In this document: positions 12,625-36,429 of the stretch, in pieces
How the letters are laid out: each line of letters opens with the position of its first letter
Position numbering within the stretch: the stretch's first letter is position 1
NCBI GenBank assembly: GCA_020061305.1
Contig: JAGUYM010000014.1
Location: 117,920 to 181,919, forward strand
Origin: Candidatus Woesebacteria bacterium
GTDB lineage: Bacteria; Patescibacteriota; Microgenomatia; UBA8517
Direction: 5' to 3'
DNA length: 64,000 bases
Translations under genes and position numbers: made by a program
Notes under the pieces: generated by a model
Database searches by the model: none
Seen by the model: the letters and a program-made list of their open reading frames with translations, nothing else
Told to the model about the DNA's origin: nothing

Positions 12625-12680
12625 ACAACAGCTGGATGATAGCGAGGAGTAAAATCTTTGGCTACACATGACTAATCAAT

Positions 12681-12950: not shown

Positions 12951-13027
12951 AAAATTAACCTAATTATTCTAATTAACCTAATTGACCAAATAAGCTTCAA
13001 ATAGGACAGAATAATTAAATATACAAA

Positions 13028-15319: not shown

Positions 15320-15471
15320 CATTTAGTTTTTAGTAAAAAGTTATATAATAACCCATATTATGGTTGAAGGCGAATGTAGGTTAACGGATGATTGTATCTC
15401 AATTTTTAGCTGATCGTTGTAGTCTCTTATAATATTTTTAAATTTCAACAATTCAATGCTACAATTAAATT

Positions 15472-16521: not shown

Positions 16522-16535
16522 TATAAAATTATTTC

Positions 16536-16994: not shown

Positions 16995-17541
16995 AGAACT
17001 TCACAAACTTAAAGATTTGATGGAAAAAGATGACTCATTACCCTTAAAAGGGGTGGCCAATAAATTAGTTTTTGGGTCGGGGAATACTGAAGCAAAAATA
17101 TTATGCATAGGTGAGGGTCCCGGAAGACAAGAAGATATAGAAGGTTTACCATTTGTAGGTCAGGCTGGAAAACTTTTGGACAAGCTTTTGCTTTTAGCTG
17201 GAGTTGAAAGAAAAAAAGTATTTATCACAAATGTTGTTCATCATAGACCACCAAATAATCGCGATCCGCTTCCCGACGAAATATCTGCATACGGAAAATA
17301 TTTAGACCAAATTATTGAGATAATTAAGCCAAAAATAATTATAACTTTAGGTAGGTTTTCTATGAATAAGTTTTTACCAGATGTGTTTATTTCTCAAGCT
17401 CACGGCAAAAGTTTTAAAATTGGAAAAATTATAGTTATTCCTATGTATCACCCCGCAGCAAGTTTAAGAAACGGCAAAATACTTGAATTAGAAAAAATGG
17501 ATTTTCAAAATTTAAAAAAAATATTGGGGAAGATAATCTGA
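16981..17541 (+). CDS. uracil-DNA glycosylase, family 4
   Basis: GEGPG...E...GLPFVGQAGKLL motif and C-terminal HPAA motif. Confidence 0.8.
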   Translation: MTKFEELHKLKDLMEKDDSLPLKGVANKLVFGSGNTEAKILCIGEGPGRQEDIEGLPFVGQAGKLLDKLLLLAGVERKKVFITNVVHHRPPNNRDPLPDEISAYGKYLDQIIEIIKPKIIITLGRFSMNKFLPDVFISQAHGKSFKIGKIIVIPMYHPAASLRNGKILELEKMDFQNLKKILGKII

Positions 17542-17643
17542 TCATTTCATGTTAAAATTAACTTAATTATTCTAATCAAGTTAATTGTTCTAAATTAGAC
17601 ATTAAGAATTAGAGCTTGGTTGGAAATTAGAAATTAGAAATTT

Positions 17644-19290
17644 ATGTTACGCTTCATAGCTCTTTCAGGAACAATTGGTGTTACCGAGAACTTAAATGTT
17701 TATGAAACAGAAAAAGATTTAATTCTTTTAGACTGCGGTATAGGCTTCCCCGATTTGGAAATGCCCGGGGTTGATCTTGTTATTCCCGATTTTTCATATG
17801 TGGTTAAAAATAAACACAAGCTAAAAGCTATTGTACTTTCTCAAGGTCATGAAGATCATATAGGCTCTTTACCGTTTTTATTTAGGAGTGTTAATGCTCC
17901 CATTTACTGTGCGCCGTTGGTTTCTGAATTTGTAAAACTTAAATTTGATGATTACGGAGTTAAAAATTATACAATAAATGTTTTTAATCCTGAAAACACT
18001 GTGGTCAAAATTGGAGACTTTGCGTTTTATCCCTTTAGAGTCGCCCATTCTGTTCCTGATACCTGTGGATTTTTAGTTGAACACCCGGAAGGTAGATTTA
18101 TGCATGTTCCTGAACACAAAATTGATCAAAAATCAGTTGATGGCATGCCATTTGATTTGATTCGAGCAAGAGAACTTGCCAAAAGAGGTAAAATTGACTG
18201 CCTTATTTCTGATTGCTTGGGAGCAAATAATCCAGGGTTTGCACCAGATTCAGTGGCAATTGAGGAAAATATTTATAAAATTGCCAAGGATGCAAAACAG
18301 GCGATTTACATGACAGCTATGTCATCAGCAATTGGTAGGTTTCAACAAATGATAAATGTTGCGGGTAGGTTAAATAGAAAAGTTGTTTTAATTGGAAGGT
18401 CTATTCAGGAAAAAGTTAATGCTGCACATCTTCTTGGATATATCAAATTTTTACCAAACCAAGTAATTGATTATAAAAAAGCAAGCAAAATGTCTCCGAG
18501 CCATTTAGTTTATATTGTTGCGGGTTGTTATGGTCAGGTAGGAAGTTCTGTTTATAGGATTGCAACGGATGTAGATAATAGATTAACTGTTGTTGAGGGT
18601 GATACATTTGTTTTTTCAGCAAACCCCGCGCCCCCCTATAGTAAAGAAAGTCAGGATTTTGTAATAGATGAATTAGTAGATAAAGGTGTTGATGTTCATT
18701 ACTACGATTTAAACGAAGGGCTTCATGTTTCGGGTCATGGTTACAAAGAAGACATAAAAATGCTTTTTGACATTGCAAAACCCTCATGTTTTATTCCTAC
18801 GGGAGGAACTATAAAACATATGCATTCATATGAAAAATTAGTAATTGAAACTGGGAGGAAAAAAGATCAAGTTTTCAAACTAAAACCAGGTGAATCTGTT
18901 GAATTTACAAATGGTAAAGCAAGAAGGGGTCAAAAGGTAAGGGTTAAAGAAGTAATGGTTCATGGTCTTGGCATTGGAGATATAGGGAAAACTGTATTAG
19001 AACATAGAACTTTACTTGGCAAAGAAGGAATGGTTGTTGTTGCTATCAAGGCGTCAAAAAAAGGAAGGGTTTTGTCAAAACCACAAATTGTTACAAGGGG
19101 ATTTGTTTTTGAGGGAATTTCAAGCGGTCTTTTGAATGATGCGGTTCAAAGACTTTCCAAATATTTAAATACTTTAAGAAATACAGATTCCAAAAAATTA
19201 AAACAAGAGACCATAAAATATCTGGAGGCCCATTTTTATCAAACTACTGGTCGCTCTCCAATGATAATCCCGATTGTGGTTGAAGTATAG
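17644..19290 (+). CDS. rnj: ribonuclease J (metallo-beta-lactamase/beta-CASP)
   Basis: LLDCGIGFPD, SQGHEDHIGSLPF motifs, beta-CASP and C-terminal domain. Confidence 0.85.
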   Translation: MLRFIALSGTIGVTENLNVYETEKDLILLDCGIGFPDLEMPGVDLVIPDFSYVVKNKHKLKAIVLSQGHEDHIGSLPFLFRSVNAPIYCAPLVSEFVKLKFDDYGVKNYTINVFNPENTVVKIGDFAFYPFRVAHSVPDTCGFLVEHPEGRFMHVPEHKIDQKSVDGMPFDLIRARELAKRGKIDCLISDCLGANNPGFAPDSVAIEENIYKIAKDAKQAIYMTAMSSAIGRFQQMINVAGRLNRKVVLIGRSIQEKVNAAHLLGYIKFLPNQVIDYKKASKMSPSHLVYIVAGCYGQVGSSVYRIATDVDNRLTVVEGDTFVFSANPAPPYSKESQDFVIDELVDKGVDVHYYDLNEGLHVSGHGYKEDIKMLFDIAKPSCFIPTGGTIKHMHSYEKLVIETGRKKDQVFKLKPGESVEFTNGKARRGQKVRVKEVMVHGLGIGDIGKTVLEHRTLLGKEGMVVVAIKASKKGRVLSKPQIVTRGFVFEGISSGLLNDAVQRLSKYLNTLRNTDSKKLKQETIKYLEAHFYQTTGRSPMIIPIVVEV

Positions 19291-19311
19291 CTTCCTCACC
19301 CCAAGTTTGGT

Positions 19312-21426
19312 ATGATGTACATATTACATATGGCCAAGAAATATAAAAAGAGAAAAGTAGATAAAAGAGCTTTTAAATTAAAACTTAAACCACAGACTTA
19401 CGCTTCTGTTGCACAGATTGTCTTTTTTGCAATTGCAATTTTAATCGTCATTTCTTTTTCGAGAAATGGTCTTGTTCTTATTAAATTAAATGATTTTATG
19501 GTCAATATTTTTGGTTGGGCTACTATATTCTTGCCTTTTATTTTTTTATCCTTTGCCTTTGTGGTAAGCAGGATTAAACTCCCCATTTCTCAGCCAAATG
19601 TAATAGTTGGTTCAATTTTATTATTTTTGTCTTTAGCCGCTGTTGGAAAATCTGGGAATTTAGGCCTTTTATTTTGGGATGGGATCTCAACTTTAATAAC
19701 ACCAATAGGGGCTTATGTTATTTTAATCGGCCTTTGTCTTACTGGACTTATCGTTATGTTTAACACCTCATTCGATCAGGTTTTTAAATTTGTGAAATCT
19801 GCTTTTAGAGTGGTTTCTTTTTATGTTCTTGGTCAAAAATCGGCAGGTGGTGGGAGGATCTCACCTAAAAAGGATTTCAAAATATCCGGTTCGGGTGTTA
19901 ATCCTACCCCAGCTATTAATAGCATCCAAGATGCTTCAAAGGCAAAAGAGGAAAATTTTGAAGAAAAATTAGTAAGTAATATTAAAGGAGACGATCAAAT
20001 ATGGAAATACCCAACACCTGATATTTTTTCGGATGATGCTTTGGGTAGGGTTGATAGGGGGGATATTAATGGTAATGCCGATATTATTGAAAAAACACTT
20101 GAATCATTTGGGATAACTGCAAAAGTTGTCGAAGTTAATCTTGGCCCTGCAGTTACCCAATACGCAATTGAGGTGGCTTTGGGCACAAAACTTAGTAAAA
20201 TTACAGCCCTTGAAAGAGATTTGGCTCTTGCCCTTTCTGCTCCGACTGGTGCAATAAGAATTGAGGCTCCAATTCCGGGAAGAAATTTAGTTGGGATTGA
20301 ACTTCCAAACAGGTCTCCTGAATTTGTACCAATTAAAAGAGTCTTAGAATCAGAAGAAATGTCTTCTAGAAAATCTAAACTTGCTGTAGCTTTGGGGCTT
20401 GATGTTTCTGGTAAACCTGTTGTTGCCGATATTTCTAAAATGCCTCACCTTTTGGTTGCTGGCCAGACTGGGTCAGGAAAATCGGTTGCCATAAATACAT
20501 TTTTAGCTTCGATTTTATATAGAAGTAGTCCGTCTGAAGTTAAATTTATTATGGTTGACCCCAAAAGAGTTGAGCTAACAGGATACAATGATATCCCACA
20601 TTTATTATCACCTGTAATTGTAGAAAATGACAAAGTTTTATCTGCTCTAAAATGGTTGACAAGGGAAATGGATAGAAGATATGAACTTTTTTCTAAAGCT
20701 GGCGCAAGAAACATTGAGAGTTATAATGAAATGAGTGGCTTTCAGGCTCTTCCTTATATAGTCTTATTTATTGATGAGCTTGCCGACATAATGTTGCTTT
20801 CCCCAGTTGAAGTTGAGGAGGCAATTACAAGACTTGCACAAATGAGTAGAGCTGTTGGAATCCACATGGTACTTGCTACCCAAAGGCCATCGGTAAATGT
20901 TATAACAGGGCTAATCAAGGCCAATATTCCTGCAAGAATTGCTTTTGCGGTATCGTCTTTAATTGATTCAAGGGTTATATTGGATACTCAAGGGGCCGAA
21001 AAGCTTTTGGGTAGAGGTGACATGCTTTATCTTCCTCCTGATCAGGCAAAACCAACTCGTATCCAAGGTGCTTTTGTATCTGATACCGAAATTAAAGGGC
21101 TCCTAAATTTTATTAGAAATCAGGGAGTTCCTGTTCAATATACAGAAGAAGTAACAACTCTTACCAAATCAGGTAAGGTGCCCGTTCCTGGGGTAACAGG
21201 AGATACAGATAATATGTTTGCCGATGCTGTAAAGATTGTTTGCCAATATGATAGAGCCTCTGCATCACTTTTACAAAGGAGGCTTTCGATGGGCTATGCC
21301 AGAGCCGCAAGGGTGATTGACCAACTTGAAGCTGCAGGTGTGATTGGACCATCTGACGGGACATCAAAACCCAGAGATGTTTTGATTAAGGATGCGGAAG
21401 AGTTCCTATCCTCAATTTCAAAATAA
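19312..21426 (+). CDS. ftsK: DNA translocase FtsK/SpoIIIE
   Basis: N-terminal TM helices, linker, motor domain HLLVAGQTGSGKSV, winged-helix gamma domain. Confidence 0.9.
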   Translation: MMYILHMAKKYKKRKVDKRAFKLKLKPQTYASVAQIVFFAIAILIVISFSRNGLVLIKLNDFMVNIFGWATIFLPFIFLSFAFVVSRIKLPISQPNVIVGSILLFLSLAAVGKSGNLGLLFWDGISTLITPIGAYVILIGLCLTGLIVMFNTSFDQVFKFVKSAFRVVSFYVLGQKSAGGGRISPKKDFKISGSGVNPTPAINSIQDASKAKEENFEEKLVSNIKGDDQIWKYPTPDIFSDDALGRVDRGDINGNADIIEKTLESFGITAKVVEVNLGPAVTQYAIEVALGTKLSKITALERDLALALSAPTGAIRIEAPIPGRNLVGIELPNRSPEFVPIKRVLESEEMSSRKSKLAVALGLDVSGKPVVADISKMPHLLVAGQTGSGKSVAINTFLASILYRSSPSEVKFIMVDPKRVELTGYNDIPHLLSPVIVENDKVLSALKWLTREMDRRYELFSKAGARNIESYNEMSGFQALPYIVLFIDELADIMLLSPVEVEEAITRLAQMSRAVGIHMVLATQRPSVNVITGLIKANIPARIAFAVSSLIDSRVILDTQGAEKLLGRGDMLYLPPDQAKPTRIQGAFVSDTEIKGLLNFIRNQGVPVQYTEEVTTLTKSGKVPVPGVTGDTDNMFADAVKIVCQYDRASASLLQRRLSMGYARAARVIDQLEAAGVIGPSDGTSKPRDVLIKDAEEFLSSISK

Positions 21427-21443
21427 CATTAAAACAAAATTAT

Positions 21444-22070
21444 ATGCTTACTATTGGAGAATATTTAAAAAGCAGGCGCCTTGAGAGAAAGATTACTCTT
21501 AATTTTTTAGAAAAAGAAACAAAAATAAAAAAAGAATTTTTACAGGCAATAGAGAATAATTTATGGGATAAATTGCCCGAATTTCCAGTTGTTTCTGGAT
21601 TTGTTAAAAATATTAGTCTAATTTTAAAAATCGACCCAAATACGGCAAACGCGATACTAAGAAGAGATTATCCCCCCAAAAAATTAACAGTTAATCCCAA
21701 ACCTGATATAAAAACAAAAATTTTGTGGTCTCCTAAATTTTCGTTTGTTTTTGGAGTGGTGGCATTTTTATTTGTCGTGCTTTCATATCTGGGATATGAA
21801 TATTCAAAGTTTGTGAAGCCGCCAATTTTAGAAATTTTTGAGCCTAAAGAAAATCAAGTGCTAATTGAAAAAAAGATAAGAGTAGAAGGTAAAACCACCA
21901 CAGATGCAACCATTTTTGTCAACAATCAGCAGGCGATAGTTGACAAAAATGGAAATTTTGAGACAGTAATTGAAATTGATAAAAACACAAAAGAACTTAA
22001 ATTTATTGCAACTTCTCGTTCAGGCAAAAAAACAGAGATTGTCAGACGGGTGTCGGTGGATATAGACTAG
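21444..22070 (+). CDS. RodZ-like membrane protein (N-terminal XRE-type HTH, single TM, C-terminal extracytoplasmic domain)
   Basis: HTH-like N-term LTIGEYLKSRRLERKITLNFLEKETKIKKEFLQAIE; TM FSFVFGVVAFLFVVLSYLGY. Confidence 0.45.
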   Translation: MLTIGEYLKSRRLERKITLNFLEKETKIKKEFLQAIENNLWDKLPEFPVVSGFVKNISLILKIDPNTANAILRRDYPPKKLTVNPKPDIKTKILWSPKFSFVFGVVAFLFVVLSYLGYEYSKFVKPPILEIFEPKENQVLIEKKIRVEGKTTTDATIFVNNQQAIVDKNGNFETVIEIDKNTKELKFIATSRSGKKTEIVRRVSVDID

Positions 22071-22073
22071 TTT

Positions 22074-22310
22074 ATGGATTCAGTACAAAGATTATTAATT
22101 ATCGTTGTTATTAGTTTAACTGTTCTTCTTGTGATAGTTGGAATTCAGGTGGTTTTTATAATTTTAGACCTTAGAAAAGCCATTAAAAGGCTGAACTCAA
22201 TTTTAGAAGATGCAATTTTGGGAGGTGGGTTAATTAGACCTGAGAAATTAACGGGTATTATGGAACTTTTCAAAAAAAACAAAATCACCACAACCCACGG
22301 GCAGGAATAG
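22074..22310 (+). CDS. small hypothetical membrane protein
   Basis: 78 aa with an N-terminal TM helix; 3 nt downstream of the RodZ-like gene. Confidence 0.3.
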   Translation: MDSVQRLLIIVVISLTVLLVIVGIQVVFIILDLRKAIKRLNSILEDAILGGGLIRPEKLTGIMELFKKNKITTTHGQE

Positions 22311-22325
22311 TGTATAATTAGCCTC

Positions 22326-24026
22326 ATGATTACTAGTGATCAGGTTAGAGAAAAGTATTTAAAGTTTTTTGAAAAGAGGGGGCATAAGATTATTAACCCT
22401 GCTCCATTAGTTCTTGAAAATGATCCAACCACACTGTTTACAAGTTCTGGCATGCAACCGCTTGTCCCCTACCTAATGGGAGAACCTCATAACGACGGGA
22501 AAAGGTTAGTTGATAGCCAACCCGCAATAAGACTTCAGGACATTGATGAAGTTGGTGACAATCGCCACACAACATATTTTAAAATGCTGGGTAATTGGAG
22601 TTTGGGTGATTATTTTAAAAAAGAACAACTTTCATGGATTTGGGAATTTTTAACTAAGGAATTAAGATTGCCAAAAGAAAAATTATATGTTTCTGTTTTT
22701 GAGGGTGATGGTTTGGTTCCTAAAGATTTAGAATCTAAAAGAATATGGCTTGATTTGGGAGTTGGTGAAAATCAAATTTTTGAGTATGGAGTAAAAAAGA
22801 ACTGGTGGAGTAGAAGTGGGACTCCTTCCCAAATGCCAGTTGGTGAAATTGGAGGGCCAGATAGTGAAATATTTTTTGATTTTGGTGATGACTTAAAACT
22901 TCATGAAAATTCGCAGTGGAAAGATGAAGTTTGCCACCCAAATTGTGACTGTGGTAGATTTTTAGAGATTGGTAATTCAGTTTTTATCCAATATAAAAAA
23001 ACTGACATGGGATTGGAAGAACTTCCCCAGAGAAATGTTGATTTTGGAGGTGGACTTGAAAGAATAACTGCAGCTTTAAACAACGATCCTGATATGTTTA
23101 AAACTGATATCTACTGGCCAACAATTGAAAAATTAGAAAAAATAACTGGCAAACAGTATGATGATCAGAGAAAAAATTTCAGAATAATTGCAGATCACTT
23201 GAGAGCTTCAGAAGCTTTAATTAAAGACGGACTGGTGCCTTCAAATAAAATGCATGGTTATGTTTTAAGAAGACTAATTAGAAGAATTGCAACAAAAATA
23301 GATGACTTTGAAAAAATAACTGACAATAGAGTAATTATAGAAGAACTTAAGAAATTTAAAGTAAGTTTAGATAAAGGACTAAAAGAAATTTCAAAAGTTG
23401 AAAAAATCACAGGTAAGATTGCATTTAATTTATACCAGTCATATGGTTTTCCGCTTGAACTGACAGTTGAACTTTTCAGAGAAAAAGGCCAAGAAGTCAA
23501 TTTAGAAGAATTTAGAAAAGAATTTGAAGGGCACAAAGAAAAATCCCGCTCGCTTTCATCTGGGGTATTTAAAGGTGGGCTTGCTGATCATTCTCCAGAA
23601 GTAGTTAAATTACATACCGCTACACATTTACTTTTGGCCTCTTTAAGAAAAGTATTAGGTCCTCATGTTATACAAAAGGGACAAAATATAATCAAAGAGA
23701 GGTGTAGATTTGACTTTCCTCACACGCAAAAGTTAGATCAAGTTCAGCTTAAAGAAGTTGAGGATATGGTAAACAATGTTATTAAAAGGGGTCTACCAGT
23801 CAGTTATAAAGTAATGCCTAAAGATGAAGCTATTAAAACCGGTGCTATCCATGCTTTTAACGAAAAATATGCTGATACGGTAAAGGTTTATACTATTGGT
23901 GATTTCAGTAACGAATTTTGCGGTGGGCCGCATGTTGAAAATACAAAAGAGATTGGTCATGTTACAATTAAGAAGCAAGAGAAAATAGGTAGTGGAATAA
24001 TTAGAATTTATGCTGTCCTTACTTAA
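22326..24026 (+). CDS. alaS: alanine--tRNA ligase, short form (catalytic core + editing-domain zinc motifs, no C-Ala domain)
   Basis: N-term [34 protein letters not shown]; editing-type HTATHLL and CGGPHV motifs near the C-terminus; 566 aa. Confidence 0.8.
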   Translation: [566 protein letters not shown]

Positions 24027-26025
24027 CAAAAAGCCAGAAAAAAAAGAAAATTATTGGGCCATCTTGATTGAAAGTAATTGGGTGGCTTCTGCAATATGGG
24101 AAATTGAAAACGGAATTGTAAAAACTATAGCTGTTTCTGAAACAGTAAGATTTGAAGACAATCTCGTTCAGGCCGTTGATACAGCGCTTTCTAGTTGCGT
24201 ACAAAAAATTGACGAAAAGATTCCCGAACCTGAAAAAACGGTTTTTGGACTTCCATCTTCATGGACTACAAACGGCGAAATTACCAGCGAAAATTTAGAA
24301 AAGTTAAAAAAGGTCTGCGAGGGTTTGTCGCTTGTGCCATCAGGGTTTGTGGTTTTAGCTGATGCTCTTGCCCACTATCTTAAAAATGAAGAGCAAGTTC
24401 CATTTAGCGGAGCACTTTTAGGAATTAGTGATGACACTTTAGATTTCTCGATTTTTAACCTGGGTAAGGTCACTAATTCTACAAATATTTCAAGAAGCGT
24501 GTCAGTTGCTGACGATTTAGTTGAAGGGTTGTCTAGATTTGGTCTTGATTCATCAAATCTACCATCGAGAATTATTTTATATAACCAAAAAGAAACAGAA
24601 CTCGAGGAGATTCAAAACGAACTTAATAGTTCTGATTGGCAAAATTTTGATACTGTTAAATTTATTCATCCCCCCAAAATTGAGATCTTAAACTCTGAAA
24701 AAAAGATACTTGCAGTTTGTCTTGCGGGGGGTGTTGAGTTGGGAGATGTTTCAGGCATTGAAACAGAAAATGCAGTTGAAGAGGATATAAATATAGCTCC
24801 TCCTGACACATCCATCGCCAAAGACTTGGGCTTCGAAGAAATTGAGGTTGGTCAAAAATCTAAAATTGAATTGTCAAAAATAAATGTTCCAAAGATTAAC
24901 ATGCCGAAGATAAATTTTAAATTACCACGGTTAAATGGTAAACCCGTAGTTATAGGCGTGGTATCCTTTGCCACCTTTTTAACTGCCGGTTTTATAATGT
25001 GGTGGTTTTTGCCAAAAGCTGGTGTTACGGTCTATGTTTTACCCAAAAAATTAGAAGAAATGATATCTATTGATTTATCAAAAGACTTAGAAAGTAAAGA
25101 AATAAATGTTAGTGTTGAAGGAGAAAAAACAAAATCTACAACAGGTATAAAAACTGTAGGTGAAAAAGCAAAGGGAAAAGTTGAAATAAGAAATTCTATG
25201 GGTATTCCCGTTGACTTGCCTTCTGGAACTGTTTTGACATCGTCCTCAAATTTAAAATTCACAACAGCTCAATCAAGCTCCGTTTCTGGCCAAGTTTTGG
25301 TCGGGTCTCCTGGTAAATCCGAAGTTGATGTTGAGGCGTCGTCAATTGGTTCGGAATATAATTTATCAAAAGATGAGGTTTTTAAGGTCGGAAGTTACCC
25401 CCAGTATGAATTGGCGGCATTTTCATTGGATAATTTTTCAGGTGGAACAAGCAGGCAAATATCTGCGGTATCTGAAGAAGACAGAGAGGTGTTATTAAAA
25501 CAGTTGGAGGACGAATTGATGGACTTGGCAAAAGAAAAATTAAAAGAAAGATTGAATTCAAAGGAAATGATGGTTGAATCTACACTAACTAAAGAAAATA
25601 TAAATGAAGGCTTCAGCAACAAAGTGGGAGACGAGGCAACGAGTTTGAGATTGTCGTTAAAGTTTGAAGTCAAAGTAAAAATTGTATCATCTGAAAAACT
25701 AGCCGAAATTGCTAAAAACACTTTAGAAATGAAAATACCCGAAGGCTTTATATTAAGAAATGATCAAATATCATACGATTTTGAAGGACTGGAAAAAGAT
25801 AGTAGATTAGAAGCGAGAGTTTCAGCCAATCTTTTACCTGATATTGATACATCTGAAATTGCAAAAAAAATTTCCGGAAAATATCCAGAGATTGCCGAAG
25901 AATATTTAAAAAGCGTGCCGGGGTATGTAAGGGCACAGTTTAGGTTTAAACCACTACCTGGAAAACTTGGAACACTTCCCCATGTTCCAAAAAATATTTC
26001 AGTTGGGTTATCTGCTGAGAAGTGA
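24010..26025 (+). CDS. membrane protein with a PilM/FtsA-like actin-fold N-domain, one TM and a large extracytoplasmic C-domain
   Basis: N-terminus MLSLLNKKPEKKENYWAILIESNWVASAIWEIENGIVKTIAVSE resembles the PilM N-terminus; TM VVIGVVSFATFLTAGFIMWWF; translationally coupled (ATGA) to the sortase gene. Confidence 0.4.
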   Translation: MLSLLNKKPEKKENYWAILIESNWVASAIWEIENGIVKTIAVSETVRFEDNLVQAVDTALSSCVQKIDEKIPEPEKTVFGLPSSWTTNGEITSENLEKLKKVCEGLSLVPSGFVVLADALAHYLKNEEQVPFSGALLGISDDTLDFSIFNLGKVTNSTNISRSVSVADDLVEGLSRFGLDSSNLPSRIILYNQKETELEEIQNELNSSDWQNFDTVKFIHPPKIEILNSEKKILAVCLAGGVELGDVSGIETENAVEEDINIAPPDTSIAKDLGFEEIEVGQKSKIELSKINVPKINMPKINFKLPRLNGKPVVIGVVSFATFLTAGFIMWWFLPKAGVTVYVLPKKLEEMISIDLSKDLESKEINVSVEGEKTKSTTGIKTVGEKAKGKVEIRNSMGIPVDLPSGTVLTSSSNLKFTTAQSSSVSGQVLVGSPGKSEVDVEASSIGSEYNLSKDEVFKVGSYPQYELAAFSLDNFSGGTSRQISAVSEEDREVLLKQLEDELMDLAKEKLKERLNSKEMMVESTLTKENINEGFSNKVGDEATSLRLSLKFEVKVKIVSSEKLAEIAKNTLEMKIPEGFILRNDQISYDFEGLEKDSRLEARVSANLLPDIDTSEIAKKISGKYPEIAEEYLKSVPGYVRAQFRFKPLPGKLGTLPHVPKNISVGLSAEK

Positions 26026-26663
26026 TAATGATTAAAAGAAAAATCATAAGAATTGCGGCCACAATTTCAGCCCTTTCGGGCATTGTCATTATTGTTTCAA
26101 CAATTTGGCCGATAATAGAATACCAATTAACGGATGCTAATGCGTATTCTACTTTAATCTCCCCTCTTTCAAACGATTCAGATTATACTAAGGCCTCAAC
26201 TTGGTTTCCAAGTGCCCCTAATAATGATAAATTTAATGAAACAAAAGTCTCTTTTTATACAATATCAATACCTAAACTTAAAATAGATAAAGCAACTGTT
26301 GCCATAGGAGGCGAGGATTTGTCAAAAAGTTTAGTACAGTATCCTGGAACGGCACTTCCTGGTAAAAATGGTAATGCGGTAATTTTTGGTCATTCAATAC
26401 TTCCTATTTTTTATAACCCTAAAAATTATATGGCAATTTTTTCAACATTACCGACTCTTAAAAAAGGAGATGATATTTTTATAAATTTTGACGGAATAGA
26501 ATATAAGTTCAAAGTTGAGGAGATGGTTGAAATATATCCGTCTGATATACAAATTCTGGAACAAAATTTATCGGACTCTTTTATAACCCTTGTAACTTGT
26601 GTTCCGCCAGGTGACCCTCGAAATCCCAAAAGGTTATTAGTAAAAGCAAGGGTGGTAACATGA
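26022..26663 (+). CDS. sortase (cysteine transpeptidase)
   Basis: N-terminal membrane anchor; catalytic His (AVIFGHSILP), TLVTCVPPG active-site Cys motif, conserved Arg (RLLVKARV). Confidence 0.75.
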   Translation: MIMIKRKIIRIAATISALSGIVIIVSTIWPIIEYQLTDANAYSTLISPLSNDSDYTKASTWFPSAPNNDKFNETKVSFYTISIPKLKIDKATVAIGGEDLSKSLVQYPGTALPGKNGNAVIFGHSILPIFYNPKNYMAIFSTLPTLKKGDDIFINFDGIEYKFKVEEMVEIYPSDIQILEQNLSDSFITLVTCVPPGDPRNPKRLLVKARVVT

Positions 26664-26667
26664 GTAT

Positions 26668-27054
26668 ATGAAATACTTAGGCATTGATTATGGAAGGAAA
26701 AAAGTAGGTCTTGCAATTTCTGATGGGAAATTGGCGGACCCCCTGAAAGTGATTAGATATAAAGATATAAATTGGTTAGTAGAACAAGTAGGACAAATAG
26801 TAGAAACAGAACAGGTGGGACAGGTGGTAGTGGGAGTGTCAGAAGGTAAAATGGCAGATGAAATTAAAAATTTTGTTTTGACTCTTTCCTTGTCACTCTC
26901 TCATGTTTCCTGTGTATTGTTTGATGAAACATTAACCTCACAAGACGCAATTAATTTTTCAATTCAAGGTGGAATAAAAAGAAAGAAAAGAAAGAAAATG
27001 GAAGATGCTTATGCAGCAACAATAATGCTTCAAAATTATTTAGATTCAAAATAG
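26668..27054 (+). CDS. ruvX: Holliday-junction-resolvase-like pre-16S rRNA nuclease RuvX/YqgF
   Basis: MKYLGIDYGRKKVGLAISDG N-terminal RNase H-like motif; 128 aa. Confidence 0.75.
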   Translation: MKYLGIDYGRKKVGLAISDGKLADPLKVIRYKDINWLVEQVGQIVETEQVGQVVVGVSEGKMADEIKNFVLTLSLSLSHVSCVLFDETLTSQDAINFSIQGGIKRKKRKKMEDAYAATIMLQNYLDSK

Positions 27055-27065
27055 TCTTTTCCCAA

Positions 27066-27092
27066 TTGACTACGCATTTTTCATGGTATAAT
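27066..27092 (+). promoter_or_regulatory. promoter TTGACT-15-TGgTATAAT (extended -10) directly upstream of the zinc-ribbon ORF; predicted leaderless transcript
   Basis: hexamers at 27066-27071 and 27087-27092; ATG at 27101. Confidence 0.5.
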
Positions 27093-27100
27093 TTACTAAG

Positions 27101-27301
27101 ATGTTTAAAAATGTGATAGCACCCATACAAGCATGGCTTTTGTCGCAGGGCAAATGTGTGGGTTGTGGCATGCCCCTTTCCAAAGCTAAATCTACCCCAT
27201 ATAAGGGTAATAACAAGATGGTTACTTGTAAATGTAATCGTATGTATGTATTAGACACCAAGGCCAATAAATACAGAAGAGCGCTTTTGAGTGAGATATG
27301 A
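27101..27301 (+). CDS. small zinc-ribbon protein (CxxC...CxC)
   Basis: 66 aa with CVGCG ... CKC; strong promoter immediately upstream; the overlapping minus-strand ORF has no features. Confidence 0.4.
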   Translation: MFKNVIAPIQAWLLSQGKCVGCGMPLSKAKSTPYKGNNKMVTCKCNRMYVLDTKANKYRRALLSEI

Positions 27302-27347
27302 TCTCACAAATCCTAATTCCTAATCAGATTCTAATAAACAATTATCA

Positions 27348-28262
27348 ATGAAAAAAGTTTTGTTAACTTTAATTATTTTTATAATACTGGTATCTATTGG
27401 AGTTTTTTTTATCAAGTTTCAAATGTCTCCAGTTTCAAGCGATAATTTGGTACAGGAGTTTTTAATAACTAAGGGTTCAAGCGTGGCTAAAATTGGTAAA
27501 GATTTAAAAAAGGCGGGTTTAATTAAAAATGACATTGTCTTTAAGTTTTATGTTCAGGCTACAAATTCTCAGACCAAAATTCAGGCGGGTGAATATGAAC
27601 TTTCAAAAAACTTAAGTTTAAATCAAATTGTAGAAATTTTAAAAAAGGGTCCAAAAGAAATTTGGGTAACAATTCCGGAGGGAATGAGGAGGGAGGAAAT
27701 AGCTTTAAAATTTGCATCAAGCTTAGATAAAGATGAAACTTTTGTAAAAGAATTTTTGAAATTAACAGAAGATAAAGAAGGTTATTTATTTCCTGATACA
27801 TATCTTTTCCCAAAAACTGCTTCAGCTTCAAGTATAGTTAAAAAAATGACAGGACTTTTTGATATAAAATTTAAAGATGTAAGTTACAAAGAACTAATTA
27901 TAGCTTCTCTTTTAGAGAGAGAAACATTAACCGATGAAGAAAAGCCTGTTGTTGCAGGAATTCTTTATAAAAGGCTTGAAAATGACTGGCCATTGCAAGT
28001 TGATGCAACCCTTCAGTATATAAAGGGCGATTGGAAACCAGTTTTCCCACAAGATAAAGAATTAAAATCTCCATATAACACTTATAAAAATCTTGGCCTT
28101 CCACCCAGACCAATTTCAAATCCCGGAAGTTCATCAATCAATGCTTCCCAAAATCCTGAAATTTCAGATTATTGGTTTTATATTCATGATACAAAGGGAG
28201 TTATTCATTATGCCAAAACAATCGAAGAACATAATCTTAATATTAGAAGATACTTGAATTAA
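27348..28262 (+). CDS. mltG: endolytic murein transglycosylase MltG (YceG-like)
   Basis: N-terminal TM, LysM-like region, YceG core with catalytic-region motif LQVDATLQY. Confidence 0.75.
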   Translation: MKKVLLTLIIFIILVSIGVFFIKFQMSPVSSDNLVQEFLITKGSSVAKIGKDLKKAGLIKNDIVFKFYVQATNSQTKIQAGEYELSKNLSLNQIVEILKKGPKEIWVTIPEGMRREEIALKFASSLDKDETFVKEFLKLTEDKEGYLFPDTYLFPKTASASSIVKKMTGLFDIKFKDVSYKELIIASLLERETLTDEEKPVVAGILYKRLENDWPLQVDATLQYIKGDWKPVFPQDKELKSPYNTYKNLGLPPRPISNPGSSSINASQNPEISDYWFYIHDTKGVIHYAKTIEEHNLNIRRYLN

Positions 28263-28272
28263 TTTTTTCCTA

Positions 28273-28300
28273 TTGACAGAGTTTGAAAATTGAATATAAT
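28273..28300 (+). promoter_or_regulatory. sigma70-like promoter for rpoBC (TTGACA-16-TATAAT)
   Basis: hexamers at 28273-28278 and 28295-28300; two hairpins follow in the 5' leader (28308-28326; 28328-28341 + U-tract). Confidence 0.55.
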
Positions 28301-28363
28301 CCAGTTTAGGCCTACGATTGTAGGCTCTCCCGTTTTCGGGACTTTTATTTTATCTAAAAATTA

Positions 28364-31300
28364 ATGAAGTCCAAAAGAAGAAATTTCGGCAAAGAGGAAA
28401 GCAATTTACCAAAACTTGATTTGGTTGCTATTCAAAAAGAATCCTGGATTCAATTTTTGGAAAAAGGTATTAAAGAAGAATTGATTTCAATTTCCCCAAT
28501 TGATGATTTTACAGGTAAAAATTGGCAACTTATATTTGGAGATCATTCACTGGGAAGACCCCAAATTACATCTTCATACGCCAAACTTAAGGGTTTGACC
28601 TACTCAGCTCCATTAAAAATTACAGCAACTCTTATAAACAAAAGAACGGGTAAGGAAGTATCTCAAGAGGTCTTTTTGGGTGATCTTCCTCAAATGACCG
28701 ATAGGGGAACATTTATTATAAACGGTATTGAAAGAACCGTAATTAATCAAATCGTCAGATCTCCCGGCGTTTATTTTTCAGGGGAACTCGATCCATCTTC
28801 AGGAAGGATTTTGTATAAAGGTGAAATTAGACCAATGCACGGCACATGGCTTGAGTTTGAAATAACTAGAGGAGACTTGGTTTATGCAAGAATAGATAGA
28901 AGGAAAAAAGTATTGGCGACAGTTCTTCTTAGGGCTTTTGGGATGGAGGATGAAGGGGCAATTTTAGATTTCTTTAAGGAAATTGATAGAGATAAGGATC
29001 ATAAATATATTACTAAAACTCTTGAAAAAGACAACACCAAATCAAGAGACGAAGCCCTTCTGGAAATTTATAGAAAACTAAGACCAGGCGAACCAGTTTT
29101 AGTTGATAATGCCACAACTCTTTTTGAAGGAATGTTTTTGGATAAAAGAAGATACGATTTGGGGGCTGTTGGAAGATATAAAATGAATAAAAGGTTAAAC
29201 AATCAAAATGTTGAAAAAAATGTTACAGTATTAAGTCTTAAAGACATTGTTTCGACGCTTGCATATTTAATTGGGCTCCAAAATGGTGATGGAAGGGTGG
29301 ATGATATAGATCACCTTTCAAATAGAAGATTAAGAAGGGTTGGTGAGTTGGTAAGTATCAATGCTTTTAGAATTGGACTTCTAAGATTAGAAAGAAGCAT
29401 TAAAGAAAAAATGAGCCTGATTTCTCCTGATGATAAGCCACTTCCATCAAATTTAATAAATGCTAGACCTTTGATCTCGTCCCTTAATGAGTTCTTTAGG
29501 AGTAATCAGCTTTCAACAATTTTAGATAATACAAATCCGCTTTCTGAGATTGATAATCTAAGAAGAGTTTCGGTTTTAGGAAGTGGTGGAATAAATAGAG
29601 AAAGGGCATCGTTCTCAATTCGTGATGTTAACTCGTCCCAATATGGAAGAATTGACCCGGTTAAAAGTCCAGAAGGACCAAACATTGGGCTGGTTACTTA
29701 TTTGACACTTTATACAAGAGTAAATGAATTTGGATTTTTGGAAACCCCCTATAGAAAGGTTGAAAAAATAGACAAAAAAGTAAGAGTAACTGATGAGATA
29801 GTTTATTTAACTGCAGAAGATGAAGAAGACTACAATATTTCCCATTCTGGAATAAACATTGATGAAAAAGGGTACATTTTGGATAAAAGGGTGGCCATTA
29901 GAAATAAAGGGAATTTTACTGAAGGACCAGCAGAAACTTTGGATTTTGTAGATGTTACACCCAGACAAATTGTTAGCGCTTCGACTTCCCTAATTCCATT
30001 TTTGGCTCATGATGAAGGAAATAGAGCCCTAATGGGATCAAATATGCAAGGTCAATCTGTTCCTTTGGTTCTCCCTGAATCTCCGGTTGTTGGAACTGGG
30101 ATGGAGGCTGAAGTTGCAAATGCAATGGGCAAAGTCGTTGTGGCCAGAAATTCAGGAATTGTTGAATATGCAGACAATGAGAAAATTATAGTTAAACTTG
30201 ATTCAAAAATTTCGGTAGACCAGTCAACTGAAGATATTGAGGTTATTGATGGTGGTAAAAAAGAATCCTATTTTTTGATCAAATTTGAGAGGACTGCACA
30301 CTCAACTTGCTATAACCAAAGAGTGTTAGTGGTGCCCGGTCAAAAAGTCAATAAAGGGGATGTTTTGGCAGATGGTCCTGCTTGTGAAAACGGGGAGCTT
30401 GCATTAGGAAGAAATTTAGTTGTTGCATATACAACTTATGGAGGATATGGGTTTGAAGATGCAATTTTAATTTCTGATAGATTGGTAAAAGAGGATCTTT
30501 TAACATCGATTCATATTGAAGAATATGATGCAGAAGTGGTGGATACTAAACTTGGACCCGAAGAAAGAACCAAAGATATTCCAAATGTTTCAGAGGCCGA
30601 ACTCGCAAATTTGGCCGATGATGGAATAGTGGTGGTTGGTGCTGAAGTGGGGCCAAATGATATTTTAGTCGGTAAAATTGCCCCGAAGGGTGAAACAGAA
30701 TTAACTGCTGAAGAAAGACTTCTTCGAGCTATTTTTGGTGAAAAAGCAAGAGAAGTAAGGGATACCTCACTTCGAGTTCCGCATGGAGAAAAAGGAATTG
30801 TTGTTGGAGTAAATATTTTAGACAGAAGCAAGGGCGATGAATTGGGCCCGGGTGTGATTGAAAAAATTACCGTTAAAGTGGCCCAGATTCGAAAAATCAC
30901 AGTGGGGGATAAAATTGCGGGAAGGCATGGCAATAAGGGTGTTATTGCAAAAATCATGGCAACAGAAGATATGCCATATATGCCCGACGGAACGCCTGTT
31001 GATATAATTATTTCACCACTTTCAGTCTTGTCCCGTATGAATTTAGGGCAACTATTGGAGGCTCATTTTGGATTGGCTTTAAAACTAAAAGGAGAAAAAG
31101 GAGCATTTCCAGTTTTTGATCATATTGCTGAAGACGATTTAATAAGGGAATTAAAATTAGCTGGTTTATCTGTAAATGGCAAAACAAGACTTACAGACGG
31201 AAGAACAGGCGAACAATTTAAAGAAGACACGGTTGTCGGAATTGGCTATATCCTCAAACTTAAACATATGGTTGAGGATAAAACTCATGCGAGGTCAACT

Positions 31301-31696
31301 GGACCATACTCACTTGTTACACAACAGCCCTTAGGCGGTAAGGCGCAAATGGGTGGACAAAGACTAGGAGAAATGGAAGTATGGGCACTAGAGGCACACA
31401 GAGCCCAACATATTTTACAGGAAATGCTTACTATAAAGTCTGATGATATTGTGGGAAGGGCCAAGGCTTTTGAGGCGATAGTCAAGGGAATCGATATTCC
31501 TCAATCTACCATACCTGAGTCGTTTAAGGTTTTAGTTAGAGAGCTTAATTCTTTGGGGTTAAATATTATACCTAAGGGAGTGGTTCTTGCCAAAAATACC
31601 GATGATGAGGTATTATTCGAAAAAGCTTCGGAAATTGTTGCTGTGGAAAAACCGACTAATGCTGAAGGTCCAATGGAAGTGAAGGTACTAGAATAA
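28364..31696 (+). CDS. rpoB: DNA-directed RNA polymerase subunit beta
   Basis: full-length RpoB conserved blocks (GDKIAGRHGNKGV, etc.). Confidence 0.97.
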   Translation: MKSKRRNFGKEESNLPKLDLVAIQKESWIQFLEKGIKEELISISPIDDFTGKNWQLIFGDHSLGRPQITSSYAKLKGLTYSAPLKITATLINKRTGKEVSQEVFLGDLPQMTDRGTFIINGIERTVINQIVRSPGVYFSGELDPSSGRILYKGEIRPMHGTWLEFEITRGDLVYARIDRRKKVLATVLLRAFGMEDEGAILDFFKEIDRDKDHKYITKTLEKDNTKSRDEALLEIYRKLRPGEPVLVDNATTLFEGMFLDKRRYDLGAVGRYKMNKRLNNQNVEKNVTVLSLKDIVSTLAYLIGLQNGDGRVDDIDHLSNRRLRRVGELVSINAFRIGLLRLERSIKEKMSLISPDDKPLPSNLINARPLISSLNEFFRSNQLSTILDNTNPLSEIDNLRRVSVLGSGGINRERASFSIRDVNSSQYGRIDPVKSPEGPNIGLVTYLTLYTRVNEFGFLETPYRKVEKIDKKVRVTDEIVYLTAEDEEDYNISHSGINIDEKGYILDKRVAIRNKGNFTEGPAETLDFVDVTPRQIVSASTSLIPFLAHDEGNRALMGSNMQGQSVPLVLPESPVVGTGMEAEVANAMGKVVVARNSGIVEYADNEKIIVKLDSKISVDQSTEDIEVIDGGKKESYFLIKFERTAHSTCYNQRVLVVPGQKVNKGDVLADGPACENGELALGRNLVVAYTTYGGYGFEDAILISDRLVKEDLLTSIHIEEYDAEVVDTKLGPEERTKDIPNVSEAELANLADDGIVVVGAEVGPNDILVGKIAPKGETELTAEERLLRAIFGEKAREVRDTSLRVPHGEKGIVVGVNILDRSKGDELGPGVIEKITVKVAQIRKITVGDKIAGRHGNKGVIAKIMATEDMPYMPDGTPVDIIISPLSVLSRMNLGQLLEAHFGLALKLKGEKGAFPVFDHIAEDDLIRELKLAGLSVNGKTRLTDGRTGEQFKEDTVVGIGYILKLKHMVEDKTHARSTGPYSLVTQQPLGGKAQMGGQRLGEMEVWALEAHRAQHILQEMLTIKSDDIVGRAKAFEAIVKGIDIPQSTIPESFKVLVRELNSLGLNIIPKGVVLAKNTDDEVLFEKASEIVAVEKPTNAEGPMEVKVLE

Positions 31697-31700
31697 AATT

Positions 31701-34700
31701 ATGTCAAACAATCAAAACGATCAAATATTAGATTTTAAAAATTTAGAGGATTTTAACTCTTTAGTTATTAGACTTGCATCAAATGATGACATTCGAAAAT
31801 GGAGTAGGGGTGAGATTACAAAACCAGAAACAATAAATTATCGGACACTAAAGTCGGAAAAAGACGGGCTTTTTGATGAAAAGATTTTTGGACCAACAAA
31901 AGATTGGGAGTGTTACTGTGGAAAATACAAAAGAATCAGATATAAAGGGGTAATTTGCGACAAATGTGGAGTTGAGGTCGCACAGTCAAGAGTCAGAAGA
32001 GAAAGAATGGGACATATAAGTTTAGCTTGCCCAGTTGCCCACATTTGGTACTTTAAAGGTGCCCCAAGTAAAATTTCAACCATCTTAGGCGTACCCCCAA
32101 GGTCACTTGAGCAAGTTGTTTATTTTGCTAGGTACCTGGTTTTAAGCGTAGATGAAGACAAAAAGAAAGATGCCATAAAAATATTGGAGAATGCCTTAAA
32201 GGAAAACGAGACTAAGATTAAAGAGGATTTCAAATCAAAAAGAGAAGCATTAAAACAAGAATCTGAAAAAGCAAGAGAAAGAATTGAAGCAAAGGTGAAA
32301 GATAAAGAACAAGCCTCTTTAGCTATTTCAGAAGTTGATTTAACCGCCAGAAAAAAAGAAACACTTTTAAACGAAGAAGAAAATTCAAGTATTTCAAGAA
32401 ATTCAAGGCTTTTTGAGAACTTGACAAGTTTAGTTAAAGGGCTAAAAGTTTTAAGTATTCTCTCAGAAGAAGAATATGATGAACTCTATAATTATGGTGC
32501 ATCTGAATTTTTTGATGCTAAAATGGGAGCTGAGGCGGTTTTGCAAGTCTTAGACAAAGTGAATTTAGATAATCTCTCTTTAGAGTTAAGAAAAGAAATT
32601 GAAGATGTTAAAAATAATTCATTAAAATATTTAAAAGCAGTAAAAAGGTTGAAACTGATTGATGGGATCAGGAAAGCTAAAGTTATTCCATCTTGGATGA
32701 TATTAAAGGTTCTCCCCGTCCTTCCACCCGATCTTCGCCCAATGGTTCAGCTTTCAGGAGGCAGGTTTGCAACATCTGATTTAAATGATCTTTATAGAAG
32801 AGTGATAAATAGAAACAATCGTTTAAAGCATCTGATTGGGCTTGGTGCGCCCGAAATAATACTTCGTAACGAAAAAAGAATGCTTCAGGAAGCCGTCGAT
32901 TCGCTTTTGGATTCGTCTCAAAGAAAAGCAACCAGAAGAGCAAGAGGAAGACAGCCTTTGAGGTCGCTTTCAGACATGTTAAAAGGTAAACAAGGAAGAT
33001 TTAGACAAAATCTGCTAGGAAAAAGAGTTGATTATTCAGGAAGAAGTGTAATTATAGTTGGACCAGAACTTAAACTTAATCAGTGCGGTCTTCCAAAAGA
33101 AATGGCTTTGGAGATGTTTAAGCCATTCGTCTTAAAGGAGATGATTGAAAGAGGAATTGCCCCAAATGTCAAATCGGCTAAAAATATGCTTGATAGAAGA
33201 CCACCTGAAGTGTTTGATATTTTGGAGGAGATTACAAAAGATCATCCTGTTCTTCTAAATCGTGCGCCAACACTTCATAAGCTCTCGATTCAAGCTTTTT
33301 ACCCAATATTAATTGAAGGGCAGGCGATAAGGCTTCATCCTGCAGTTTGCGCTGGCTTTAACGCAGATTTTGACGGAGACCAAATGGCAGTTCATGTTCC
33401 CTTATCCAAAAAAGCTATCGAAGAGGCAAGAAATTTAATGCTTCCAGAAAAGAACCTATTAAGGCCAGCAGACGGTACTCCCGTATCTACTCCCGCCAGT
33501 AAGGAAATGGCCTTGGGAGTTTACTACTTAACATCAATTGACTCAAGAATTGAAGAAAGTAAGACTGTCTATGCAGACAAAAATGAGGCAATTTTGGCTC
33601 ATCAGAGTGGAAAAATTGAATTGAGACAGGAGATAAGCGTATTTGTCGATGGGAAAATAATTAAAACTACGGTTGGAAGGATTTACTTTAATGAAATACT
33701 TCCTGAAAATTTCTCATTTGTCAATGAATCAGCGACATCAAGTGTTATAAAGAAATTATTTAGCCAGGCTTATGCCACATCTACATCGGAGAGGGTGGTT
33801 CAAATGATAGATGATGTTAAGTCAGTAGGGTTTATGGCCGGAACAATTTCTGGAATTTCATTCGGAGTTTTTGATGCACCAATATTGCCTAATAAAAAAG
33901 ATATTTTGAAGAAAGCTGAAGAAAGAATTGCCGAGATTGAGGAAAACTTTAATTTAGGGCTTATTACAACGGAAGAAAAGAAGAGAATGAGTAAGGAGAT
34001 TTGGCTTGAGGTGTCAGATGATTTGGCAGATAAAACATGGGATTTGATGGAGCCCACTAATCCAATTAGAGTAGTAATTGATGCAAAAGTAGGTAGGGCA
34101 TCTCGTGATCAGGTTAAACAGTTATCAGCAATTAGGGGGTTGGTCGTAGATCCTCTTGGAAAAATTGTTGAGCTTCCAATTAAGAGCAACTTTAGGGAGG
34201 GTCTTTCTGTTTTTGAATATGTAACATCATCAAGAGGTTCAAGAAAAGGTTTGACTGATACAGCAATCAAGACGGCAGATGCGGGATATTTAACCAGAAG
34301 ACTTGTTGATGTGTCCCATGATTTAATTATTAGACTTGATGATTGTGGAACTGATAAGTTTATCGAAGTTGTTAAAAGTGAAAGACCATCAAGTTTTAAC
34401 CAAAGAATTACTGGTAGATTTTTGGCAAGTGACATCAAAGATAAAAACAATAAAGTTTTGGCGGTTAATGGAGATTTAATTACTGAAGATTTGGCATCTA
34501 AAATTGAAGAAAATGAAATTGAAACAGTAAAGGTCAGATCACCTTTGACATGTCAGGCTAGATATGGTTTGTGTGCCAAATGTTATGGTTGGGACTTGTC
34601 GACAAAGTCAGTTGTCGAATTGGGGTCACCTGTTGGGGTTGTTGCGGCCCAGTCTATTGGTGAACCTGGAACACAGTTAACACTTAGAACTAAACACGCA

Positions 34701-35429: not shown

Positions 35430-35432
35430 ACT

Positions 35433-35840: not shown

Positions 35841-35842
35841 AT

Positions 35843-36322: not shown

Positions 36323-36429
36323 ACCTATGGTGCTATGTCTAGCGAACTTCAGGAGAAACTCCAAAGAATACAGAAATTATGTGGAAAAGATAGATCAAAA
36401 AAAGATATGAATTTGAAATTCATTGATTT

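Follow-up and report, generated by a model that had tools for sequence, protein, structure and literature searches.

What is the role of a membrane protein that carries an actin-like fold on its cytoplasmic side, a large domain outside the cell, and a sortase gene immediately behind its own? The question is raised by a gene at 24010..26025 (plus strand; hereafter the target) within a 64,000-nucleotide stretch of contig JAGUYM010000014.1 (positions 117,920 to 181,919, forward strand) from a Candidatus Woesebacteria bacterium (assembly GCA_020061305.1), which was analysed over its full length and is referred to as the window. Within the Candidate Phyla Radiation (CPR), the Microgenomates form a large group that is uncultivated, and their cell envelope and their attachment to hosts are, to our knowledge, essentially unknown. 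The function that we infer for the target, tentatively and with a rough probability of 0.4, is that of a transmembrane scaffold for sortase-dependent surface display; as such it may be the scaffold of a hitherto undescribed surface-protein anchoring machine.

The target is an open reading frame (ORF) of 671 aa that starts with ATG and ends with TGA at 26023-26025, in agreement with an earlier note on this DNA, which had given the same frame and the same N-terminal sequence; a protein identical to its product (P0001) was found in public assemblies. The product is a bitopic membrane protein consisting of an FtsA/PilM-like ASKHA (acetate and sugar kinase/Hsc70/actin) domain, a linker, a transmembrane (TM) helix and a baseplate-J-like ectodomain. 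From 61 homologues a confident AlphaFold2 model was built (mean pLDDT, predicted local distance difference test, 86.6), which includes an actin-type N-terminal domain (N-domain) of two halves. The N-terminal tail (aa 1-13, MLSLLNKKPEKKE; 24010..24048) is hydrophobic and basic, with pLDDT <50 at residues 5-8 and the consensus MLDFLxKxxxxKE across the family, and leads into a minimal cytoplasmic ASKHA (actin-like) domain (aa 14-252; 24049..24765), as delimited by the model and by structure comparison. The linker (aa 253-310; 24766..24939), first acidic and then basic, is of low pLDDT, and its segments 254-269 and 276-310, both below 50 in the AlphaFold2 model, are probably disordered; it ends in juxtamembrane mini-repeats, KINVPKINMPKINFKLPRLNGK. 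A single strong hydropathy segment at about aa 311-333 coincides with a modelled helix at 311-333 (24940..25008), and because the K/R-rich stretch KINVPKINMPKINFKLPRLNGK lies on its N-terminal side, the positive-inside rule gives an N-in/C-out topology. The extracytoplasmic domain of about 338 aa (aa 334-671; 25009..26022) is modelled as a beta-rich structure with one long helix, arranged as a beta-barrel, a baseplate-J core and an alpha/beta C-terminal module, and it carries an invariant GGxS motif (G478, G479, S481) and D491. The TM helix after about 300 aa and the outside domain of about 340 aa, both proposed before, are thus borne out. Directly before the TM helix, a basic mini-repeat (INVPK/INMPK/INFKLP) occupies aa 291-310 (24880..24939); its generic form, [FLIMV]P[KR][IFLVM], is present in one to three copies in 184 of 354 target relatives, and a lipid-headgroup-binding or partner-binding motif is possible.

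Full-length homologues of the target numbered 582, all assigned to Patescibacteria, Microgenomates or Woesebacteria and named by NCBI either 'baseplate J/gp47 family protein' or 'hypothetical'. After exhaustive search with the N-domain alone, at least 1264 clusters at 50% identity were obtained; the best 150 matches listed are almost all about 700-780 aa in length with the domain at the N-terminus, and a TM segment is found in 353 of 354 full-length relatives. This layout, seen among the 354 relatives and the N-domain matches alike, indicates that the fusion is the fixed architecture of the family. The survey of related genomes that the earlier note had called for therefore found the fusion as the norm in a large Microgenomates family, with the sortase neighbour conserved as described below. 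Search from a divergent member reached Collierbacteria and Beckwithbacteria, and all Woesebacteria species loci that were sampled carry the target, as do several other groups of Microgenomates, with a single copy in each locus examined. We conclude that the target is a core, lineage-specific envelope protein of Microgenomates, including Woese-, Collier- and Beckwithbacteria among others. In the literature searched on baseplate J together with Microgenomates, Woesebacteria, FtsA, PilM or sortase, no description of this family or of its domain combination was found. Sortase has been reported to be near-ubiquitous in Microgenomates and patchy elsewhere in the CPR (Meheust 2019; PMC6744442), a pattern that fits the taxonomic range of the target family as far as sampled.

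In the model, aa 14-252 form two consecutive beta-beta-beta-alpha-beta-alpha-beta-alpha halves, corresponding to a 1A plus 2A core of about 240 residues from which the subdomain 1C and 2B insertions are absent. The closest structures are FtsA and PilM, with PilM as the top Foldseek match of the N-domain, and the ASKHA core fold was recovered by structure in the comparisons with both; the aligned residues were 203-207 of the 333-355 in PilM and 211 of the 370 in FtsA (overall range, 203-212). The segment 'LSLVPSGFVVLADALAHYL', previously pointed out as resembling actin-fold motifs, was found to comprise, in the first ASKHA half, strand beta5 and the connecting helix, and L106, S107, L108, P110, G112, F113 and V114 within it are invariant among close relatives, so that this reading of the segment was upheld by structure. 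By sequence, membership in the PilM or FtsA family was rejected. Searches against Pfam, NCBIfam and PDB sequences gave no actin-fold match, the only significant match of the target being Baseplate_J at aa 384-480, and Pfam PilM_2, FtsA, GspL and MreB matched neither the target nor 64 divergent relatives, even at E<=1. Comparison by hhalign of the target-family profile was not significant with P. aeruginosa PilM (sequence identical to 5eox; E 0.67, probability 0.07%) or with FtsA (sequence identical to 7q6d; E 0.42), these templates being single sequences and the test accordingly weaker than HHpred with template alignments; the insignificant FtsA alignment still falls on the equivalent beta1-beta3/alpha1 region. 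The PilM-like N-terminus of the earlier note is thus a likeness by eye (MLSLLNKK against MLGLIKKK) that profile comparison does not reproduce, and over residues ~1-300 the proposed actin-fold/PilM similarity stands by structure comparison but not by Pfam or hhalign.

The nucleotide-binding motifs of this fold were followed through the alignment columns of the family. The phosphate-2 loop DxGGGT is missing family-wide and no Gly-rich loop is present; at position 138, 61 of 61 close relatives have G, whereas R, G or Q is seen in the distant ones; [ND][GQ] takes the place of the adenosine GG after beta4', and only some members of the family retain the acid of the phosphate-1 motif (DxG). Among distant members there is still a beta1-beta2 motif, 'EIxxxxVK', that resembles GxDIGxxxxK of PilM and FtsA. 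Since the canonical nucleotide loops are missing, the domain is read, from its motifs, as a putative nucleotide-independent interaction module (pseudo-ATPase) and not as an enzyme. The 'PilM-like ATPase-fold domain' of the earlier note therefore keeps its actin fold, lacks both a PilM sequence match and the canonical nucleotide motifs, and on the latter should not be taken to mean 'ATPase'.

For the outside domain, to which no homology had been assigned before, we obtained a Pfam Baseplate_J match above the cut-off (PF04865; 24.8 bits against a gathering threshold of 21.1, E 1.5e-5) at aa 384-480 (25159..25449), a segment also matched by PHROG 6 'baseplate wedge subunit' at E 1.2e-5. Pfam Baseplate_J is likewise matched by 46 of 65 divergent family members, and the target-family profile picks up diffocin TRI-2 (E 1e-3) over a conserved GG(T/S) region. 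In a Foldseek search against viral models, about 340 columns were aligned with complete 'Baseplate J-like' proteins (E ~3e-7), and the fold of the solved wedge proteins was recovered in the target ectodomain; one of its sub-barrels is also similar to the GlxA beta-barrel. From these results we conclude that the ectodomain and phage baseplate wedge protein J are homologous. The family resemblance to Baseplate J, Mu gp47, P1 BplA and diffocin TRI-2 (T4 gp6-type) consists of the GG(T/S) region and the approximately 340 Foldseek columns. Unlike these proteins, however, the target has an N-terminal TM helix as its anchor in the cell membrane and carries a fused actin fold, and it is a chromosomal, single-copy gene within a housekeeping array, vertically conserved across a bacterial class and accompanied by no tail, sheath, spike or other baseplate genes.

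The possibility that the target itself is a sortase substrate was considered and rejected, because its C-terminus is a structured beta-strand in a block of pLDDT ~90-94 extending to aa 670; a hydrophobic C-terminal tail is found in just 2 of 354 relatives. A C-terminal 'VPKN' was also considered as the lysine acceptor of a pilin motif, and was set aside, as K661 is kept by no more than 54 of 61 close and 33 of 65 distant relatives.

The gene directly downstream of the target was confirmed to be a sortase (26028..26663, plus strand; 211 aa from ATG; Pfam Sortase, 78.5 bits against 26.6, E 4.5e-22), in which an N-terminal TM anchor, the catalytic His of FGHS, the Cys of TLVTC and a C-terminal Arg can be read. 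The junction is ...aag TGA ta ATG: a GTG at 26022 overlaps the stop codon of the target (GTGA) and would give 213 aa, and the ATG at 26028, from which public gene calls start the protein of 211 aa, lies 2 nt after it, so that the 'ATGA' overlap reported before is to be replaced by one of these two starts. This sortase gene, the only one in the 64-kb window, adjoins the target and has the same orientation. Gene order was then compared among 77 species-representative loci and was, almost without exception, RNase J, FtsK, RodZ-like protein, 78-aa TM protein, alanyl-tRNA synthetase (AlaRS), target, sortase, RuvX, YceG and RpoB. The sortase is the next gene after the target in 73 of 75 species-level loci; in 65 of the 75 its start lies within 40 nt of the target stop, and in 22 the two overlap. 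Collierbacteria, Beckwithbacteria and two further lineages have different outer flanks but keep the order AlaRS-target-sortase-(EamA)-RuvX-66 aa-(YceG).

As in the SrtA/SrtC systems of Gram-positive bacteria, this neighbour has the His, Cys (TLVTC) and Arg of a bona fide sortase, and a surface protein with the same classical tripartite sorting signal (TPETG + TM + KK) is encoded in the same genome. It differs from them in scoring below every class-specific NCBIfam cut-off and in that the substrate gene is located inside a pilN-pilO operon, and among the sortase systems described we know of none with a membrane partner that is actin-fold or baseplate-like. Of the NCBIfam models, that for class C scores best (64.7 bits, with the cut-off at 160) and those for classes D, E and F score lower, and the nearest PDB sequences are a mixture of unclassified 'sortase family', class C, class D and class A entries; by sequence, the class (A-F) is not assignable.

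The operon in question lies on the minus strand at 148..3257 and contains, in this order, rpsT, PilN, PilO, a 65-aa TM ORF and an Fn3/Big_13 surface protein, with pilM absent from it. PilN (2299..2862, minus; Pfam PilN, 1e-11), with ...KIINLLP... near its N-terminus, is the separate PilN carrying the INLLP peptide that had been noticed 21 kb away from the target. It is followed by PilO (1633-2295, minus; Pfam PilO, 2.5e-6), the 65-aa TM ORF (1436-1633, minus) and the Fn3/Big_13 protein of 434 aa (148-1452, minus), which ends in a sortase sorting signal consisting of TPETG, a hydrophobic helix and KK (151-252, minus). A collection of 80 metagenomic PilN loci (L085-L167) was surveyed for this organization. 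PilO comes right after PilN in 58 of 58 loci that had room to check, a Big_13 orthologue lies downstream of pilO in 41 of 41, and rpsT is immediately upstream of pilN in 44 of 48; of 120 PilN homologues, 117 carry the INL[LI]P motif. The sorting motifs of the Big_13 orthologues (TPETG, VPVTG, VPETG, LPQSG, IPQTG and similar) fit xPx[TS]G in 36 of 41 cases, and these orthologues are the only sorting-signal ORFs found in 1.1 Mb of sampled Microgenomates DNA. Thus the target pairs with a sortase, PilN/PilO pair with a sortase substrate, and the linkage is reciprocal. By phmmer with P. aeruginosa PilM and the target N-domain as queries (E<=1e-4), no PilM-like ORF was detected in the 6-kb flanks of the 80 PilN loci, a weak test that a divergent CPR PilM could escape, and none of the gsp or pil ATPase/platform genes was found in the 64-kb window. 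A wall-anchored protein encoded together with type IV pilus (T4P) alignment proteins is unusual, and it could be a monoderm stand-in for PilP/PilQ. Downstream of the pilN-pilO-Big_13 operon in locus L087 (13058..13933) is a gene for a 291-aa secreted Cys-rich protein ending in 'LPVVGTSWPTVLATGFGILVILGSLLLAL', with an LPxxG-like motif and a hydrophobic helix and without a basic tail; judged from this sequence, it may be a second, atypical sortase substrate.

From the anatomy, the conservation and the gene linkage given above, we propose a mechanism in which the target would scaffold the sortase, which is anchored likewise, with an N-terminal TM segment and the catalytic domain outside. The baseplate-J fold builds rings and wedges in phage baseplates, and the baseplate-J-like ectodomain would serve to organise or oligomerise a platform at the membrane's outer face, on which the sortase would process LPXTG-type substrates; one of these would be the TPETG Big_13 protein encoded with PilN/PilO. 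The FtsA/PilM-like domain on its flexible tether would link the platform to a cytoplasmic or juxtamembrane partner, and this partner would set where and when anchoring happens. The same overall design, in which one TM helix joins an actin-like domain in the cytoplasm to a domain outside it, is found in GspL/EpsL of type II secretion and in the PilM+PilN unit, each of which serves as scaffold and couples an envelope machine to the cytoplasm; the actin-like domain of GspL is nucleotide-free. In contrast to GspL, the target has no Pfam GspL or GspL_C match, its outside domain is baseplate-J-like and not of the PilN/GspL ferredoxin-like fold, and its partner gene is a sortase with no GspE, GspF, GspM or pseudopilin genes nearby. 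What is new relative to the GspL and PilM+PilN designs is the outside domain, the sortase as partner and the loss of the nucleotide motifs.

The scaffold reading is supported by the maintenance of the target-sortase pair in Collierbacteria and Beckwithbacteria despite their differing outer flanks. Several observations weigh against it. The upstream alaS (22326..24026, plus strand; a short AlaRS of 566 aa) overlaps the start of the target by 17 nt, as tight as the target-sortase junction, and since tight or overlapping junctions are the rule in the window, the spacing of target and sortase alone says little. The 10-gene array from RNase J to rpoB is syntenic across Woesebacteria, and adjacency may represent a frozen order; loci L052 and L074 have insertions between target and sortase, and the short contig L012 runs from the target directly to ruvX with no sortase between. 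No sorting signal (C-terminal motif, hydrophobic segment and basic tail) is carried by the target, as judged over 354 relatives, and the putative loss of nucleotide binding by the N-domain is read from motifs. No sortase system known to us requires an actin-fold or baseplate-like partner.

These observations are partly shared with an alternative in which there is no functional coupling to the sortase and the target is an independent envelope protein held in an inherited gene order; it could then be, for example, a surface receptor, the base of an adhesin, or a baseplate domain domesticated for cell-cell contact, and phage baseplate-J-like proteins are indeed structural and adhesive parts. The collinearity of the RNase J to rpoB block in 70+ species, the ubiquity of gene overlaps in the window and the exceptional loci L012, L052 and L074 all agree with such a protein. 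We nevertheless consider it unlikely, because the target-sortase pair stays intact where the outer flanks are rearranged, and because the sampled range of the family matches the clade in which sortase is near-universal.

A second alternative makes the target the PilM equivalent of a split PilM-PilN-PilO complex, of which the N-domain would bind the INLLP peptide of PilN, the whole forming a sortase-dependent appendage that displays or polymerises the LPXTG Big_13 protein. The reciprocal linkage (target with sortase in 73 of 75 loci; PilN/PilO with substrate in 41 of 41, and pilM never found there) is as expected for such a complex, and the INL[LI]P motif kept in 117 of 120 PilN homologues implies a PilM-like partner; PilM is moreover the top Foldseek match, the hydrophobic/basic N-terminal tail of the target resembles that of PilM, and the 'EIxxxxVK' motif of distant members recalls GxDIGxxxxK of PilM and FtsA. 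Like PilM (2YCH, 5EOU, 5EOX), the target would be the cytoplasmic module of a membrane-associated assembly. PilM, however, binds PilN non-covalently, whereas the ASKHA domain of the target is covalently tied to its own TM helix and ectodomain; PilM has 1A, 1C, 2A and 2B together with the nucleotide motifs, and the target lacks 1C, 2B and the phosphate-2 and adenosine motifs. In PilM, subdomain 1C helps to form the PilN-binding groove (2YCH/5EOU), and since the target model is devoid of 1C, canonical docking of PilN onto its N-domain is unlikely. Nor is the target encoded with pilN, pilO, pilB or pilC; its neighbours are alaS and, in 73 of 75 loci, the sortase, and the loci of target and PilN/PilO are 21 kb apart. 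Furthermore, a canonical PilM has been reported in a Microgenomates T4P locus whose gene list includes neither PilN nor PilO (PMC7143001), and pilM homologues occur in most Patescibacteria phyla (PMC11623550). Taken together with the missing 1C, these reports indicate most simply that the orphan PilN/PilO serve an ordinary T4P machine, and the split complex appears doubtful. The earlier judgement that this is not a standard type IV pilus arrangement holds. The 'Pam pilus' of a preprint (10.64898/2026.03.03.709456) was compared for overlap and found to be an unrelated operon.

Along the same line, target, sortase and the pilM-less PilN/PilO could together make up an unrecognised envelope-spanning machine that assembles or anchors an LPXTG-type Ig-like surface protein or fibre, to which we give only a low probability. 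Its core would be a ring-forming TM protein with a pseudo-ATPase inside and a domesticated baseplate-wedge domain outside. If true, the machine would be a hybrid in which T4P alignment parts, the chemistry of sortases and a phage baseplate fold come together, and these uncultivated episymbionts could depend on it for attachment to their hosts.

Quite improbable is a role as FtsA-like tether of the divisome or elongasome, in which the actin fold would engage FtsZ, MreB or another partner of the cytoskeleton, the ectodomain would act on the wall, and the sortase would be incidental or concerned with septal anchoring of surface proteins. As in FtsA (3WQT, 7Q6D, 1E4F), the ASKHA domain is followed by a flexible linker and then a membrane anchor, and the neighbourhood is rich in envelope and division genes, such as ftsK, the RodZ-like HTH_25-TM gene and mltG/yceG, and, in the Collierbacteria locus, ftsE/ftsX and an M23 peptidase nearby. 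This neighbourhood also contains alaS, ruvX and rpoBC, however, so that context is weak evidence. In place of the amphipathic C-terminal helix of FtsA, the target has a true TM helix and a 338-aa ectodomain; both 2B, the site for the FtsZ peptide, and 1C, the site for the late divisome and FtsN, are absent, as are the nucleotide motifs and any similarity to FtsA in Pfam or hhalign (E 0.42), and the target is not located in the division gene cluster (dcw) with ftsZ. Finally, a remnant of a prophage or of a contractile injection system is rejected, since no contractile-tail or injection-system cluster (gpW, gpI, gpV, sheath, tube) and no other phage genes were seen around the target, its neighbours being housekeeping genes collinear in 70+ species and the GC content being uniform.

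Returning to the scaffold for sortase-dependent display, the present findings bring new information to a family otherwise without assigned function and bearing only a misleading phage label: an FtsA/PilM-type cytoplasmic domain, the pairing with a sortase, and an LPXTG substrate within the PilN/PilO operon of the lineage. In combination they provide a concrete, testable model for surface-protein anchoring in Microgenomates, and the target exemplifies how a phage baseplate fold has been recruited into a membrane protein of the cell. Should the components prove to act together, they would represent a new kind of monoderm surface-assembly apparatus; should they not, the annotation of more than 1000 protein clusters is still corrected.

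The remaining members of the array were also inspected. Downstream of the sortase are ruvX (26668-27054, plus strand) and yceG/mltG (27348-28262, plus strand), and upstream of alaS are genes for a RodZ-like protein (HTH_25, TM helix and Ig-like/Glucodextran_B) and a 78-aa single-TM protein (21444..22310, plus strand), which precede alaS in most of the Woesebacteria loci examined. The order alaS-yrzL-yrrK-yrzB-yrrL of B. subtilis contains alaS-ruvX-mltG, which we take to be an old cluster, and on this assumption target and sortase appear to be lodged in it as a unit of two genes. A typical bacterial AlaRS is about 870 aa long; that of the window is short, with the catalytic and tRNA_SAD domains, and the same short form (566-615 aa) is encoded in related loci. 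Between ruvX and yceG/mltG is a conserved 66-aa Cys-rich ORF (27101..27301, plus strand; ...GKCVGCGMP...VTCKCNRMY...), zinc-ribbon-like and without Pfam match, which is kept at 66-67 aa in Collierbacteria, Beckwithbacteria and two other lineages (L081-L084); it holds this position in three of these four distant loci, and in L084, from which yceG is absent, it follows ruvX.

Elsewhere in the window, a 298-aa ORF between infB and pnp (11588..12484, plus strand) has no Pfam match at E<=0.01; its counterpart may be a gene of 319 aa that lies between infB and rpsO/pnp in L084 and has a faint DHH match only. Strand compositional disparity has been highlighted in another Microgenomates genome (Kadnikov et al. 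2020; PMC7143001). Along the whole of the present stretch (1..64000), each of the 32 two-kb windows has a positive GC skew, the cumulative skew rises monotonically, and almost all genes past 3.2 kb are on the plus strand.

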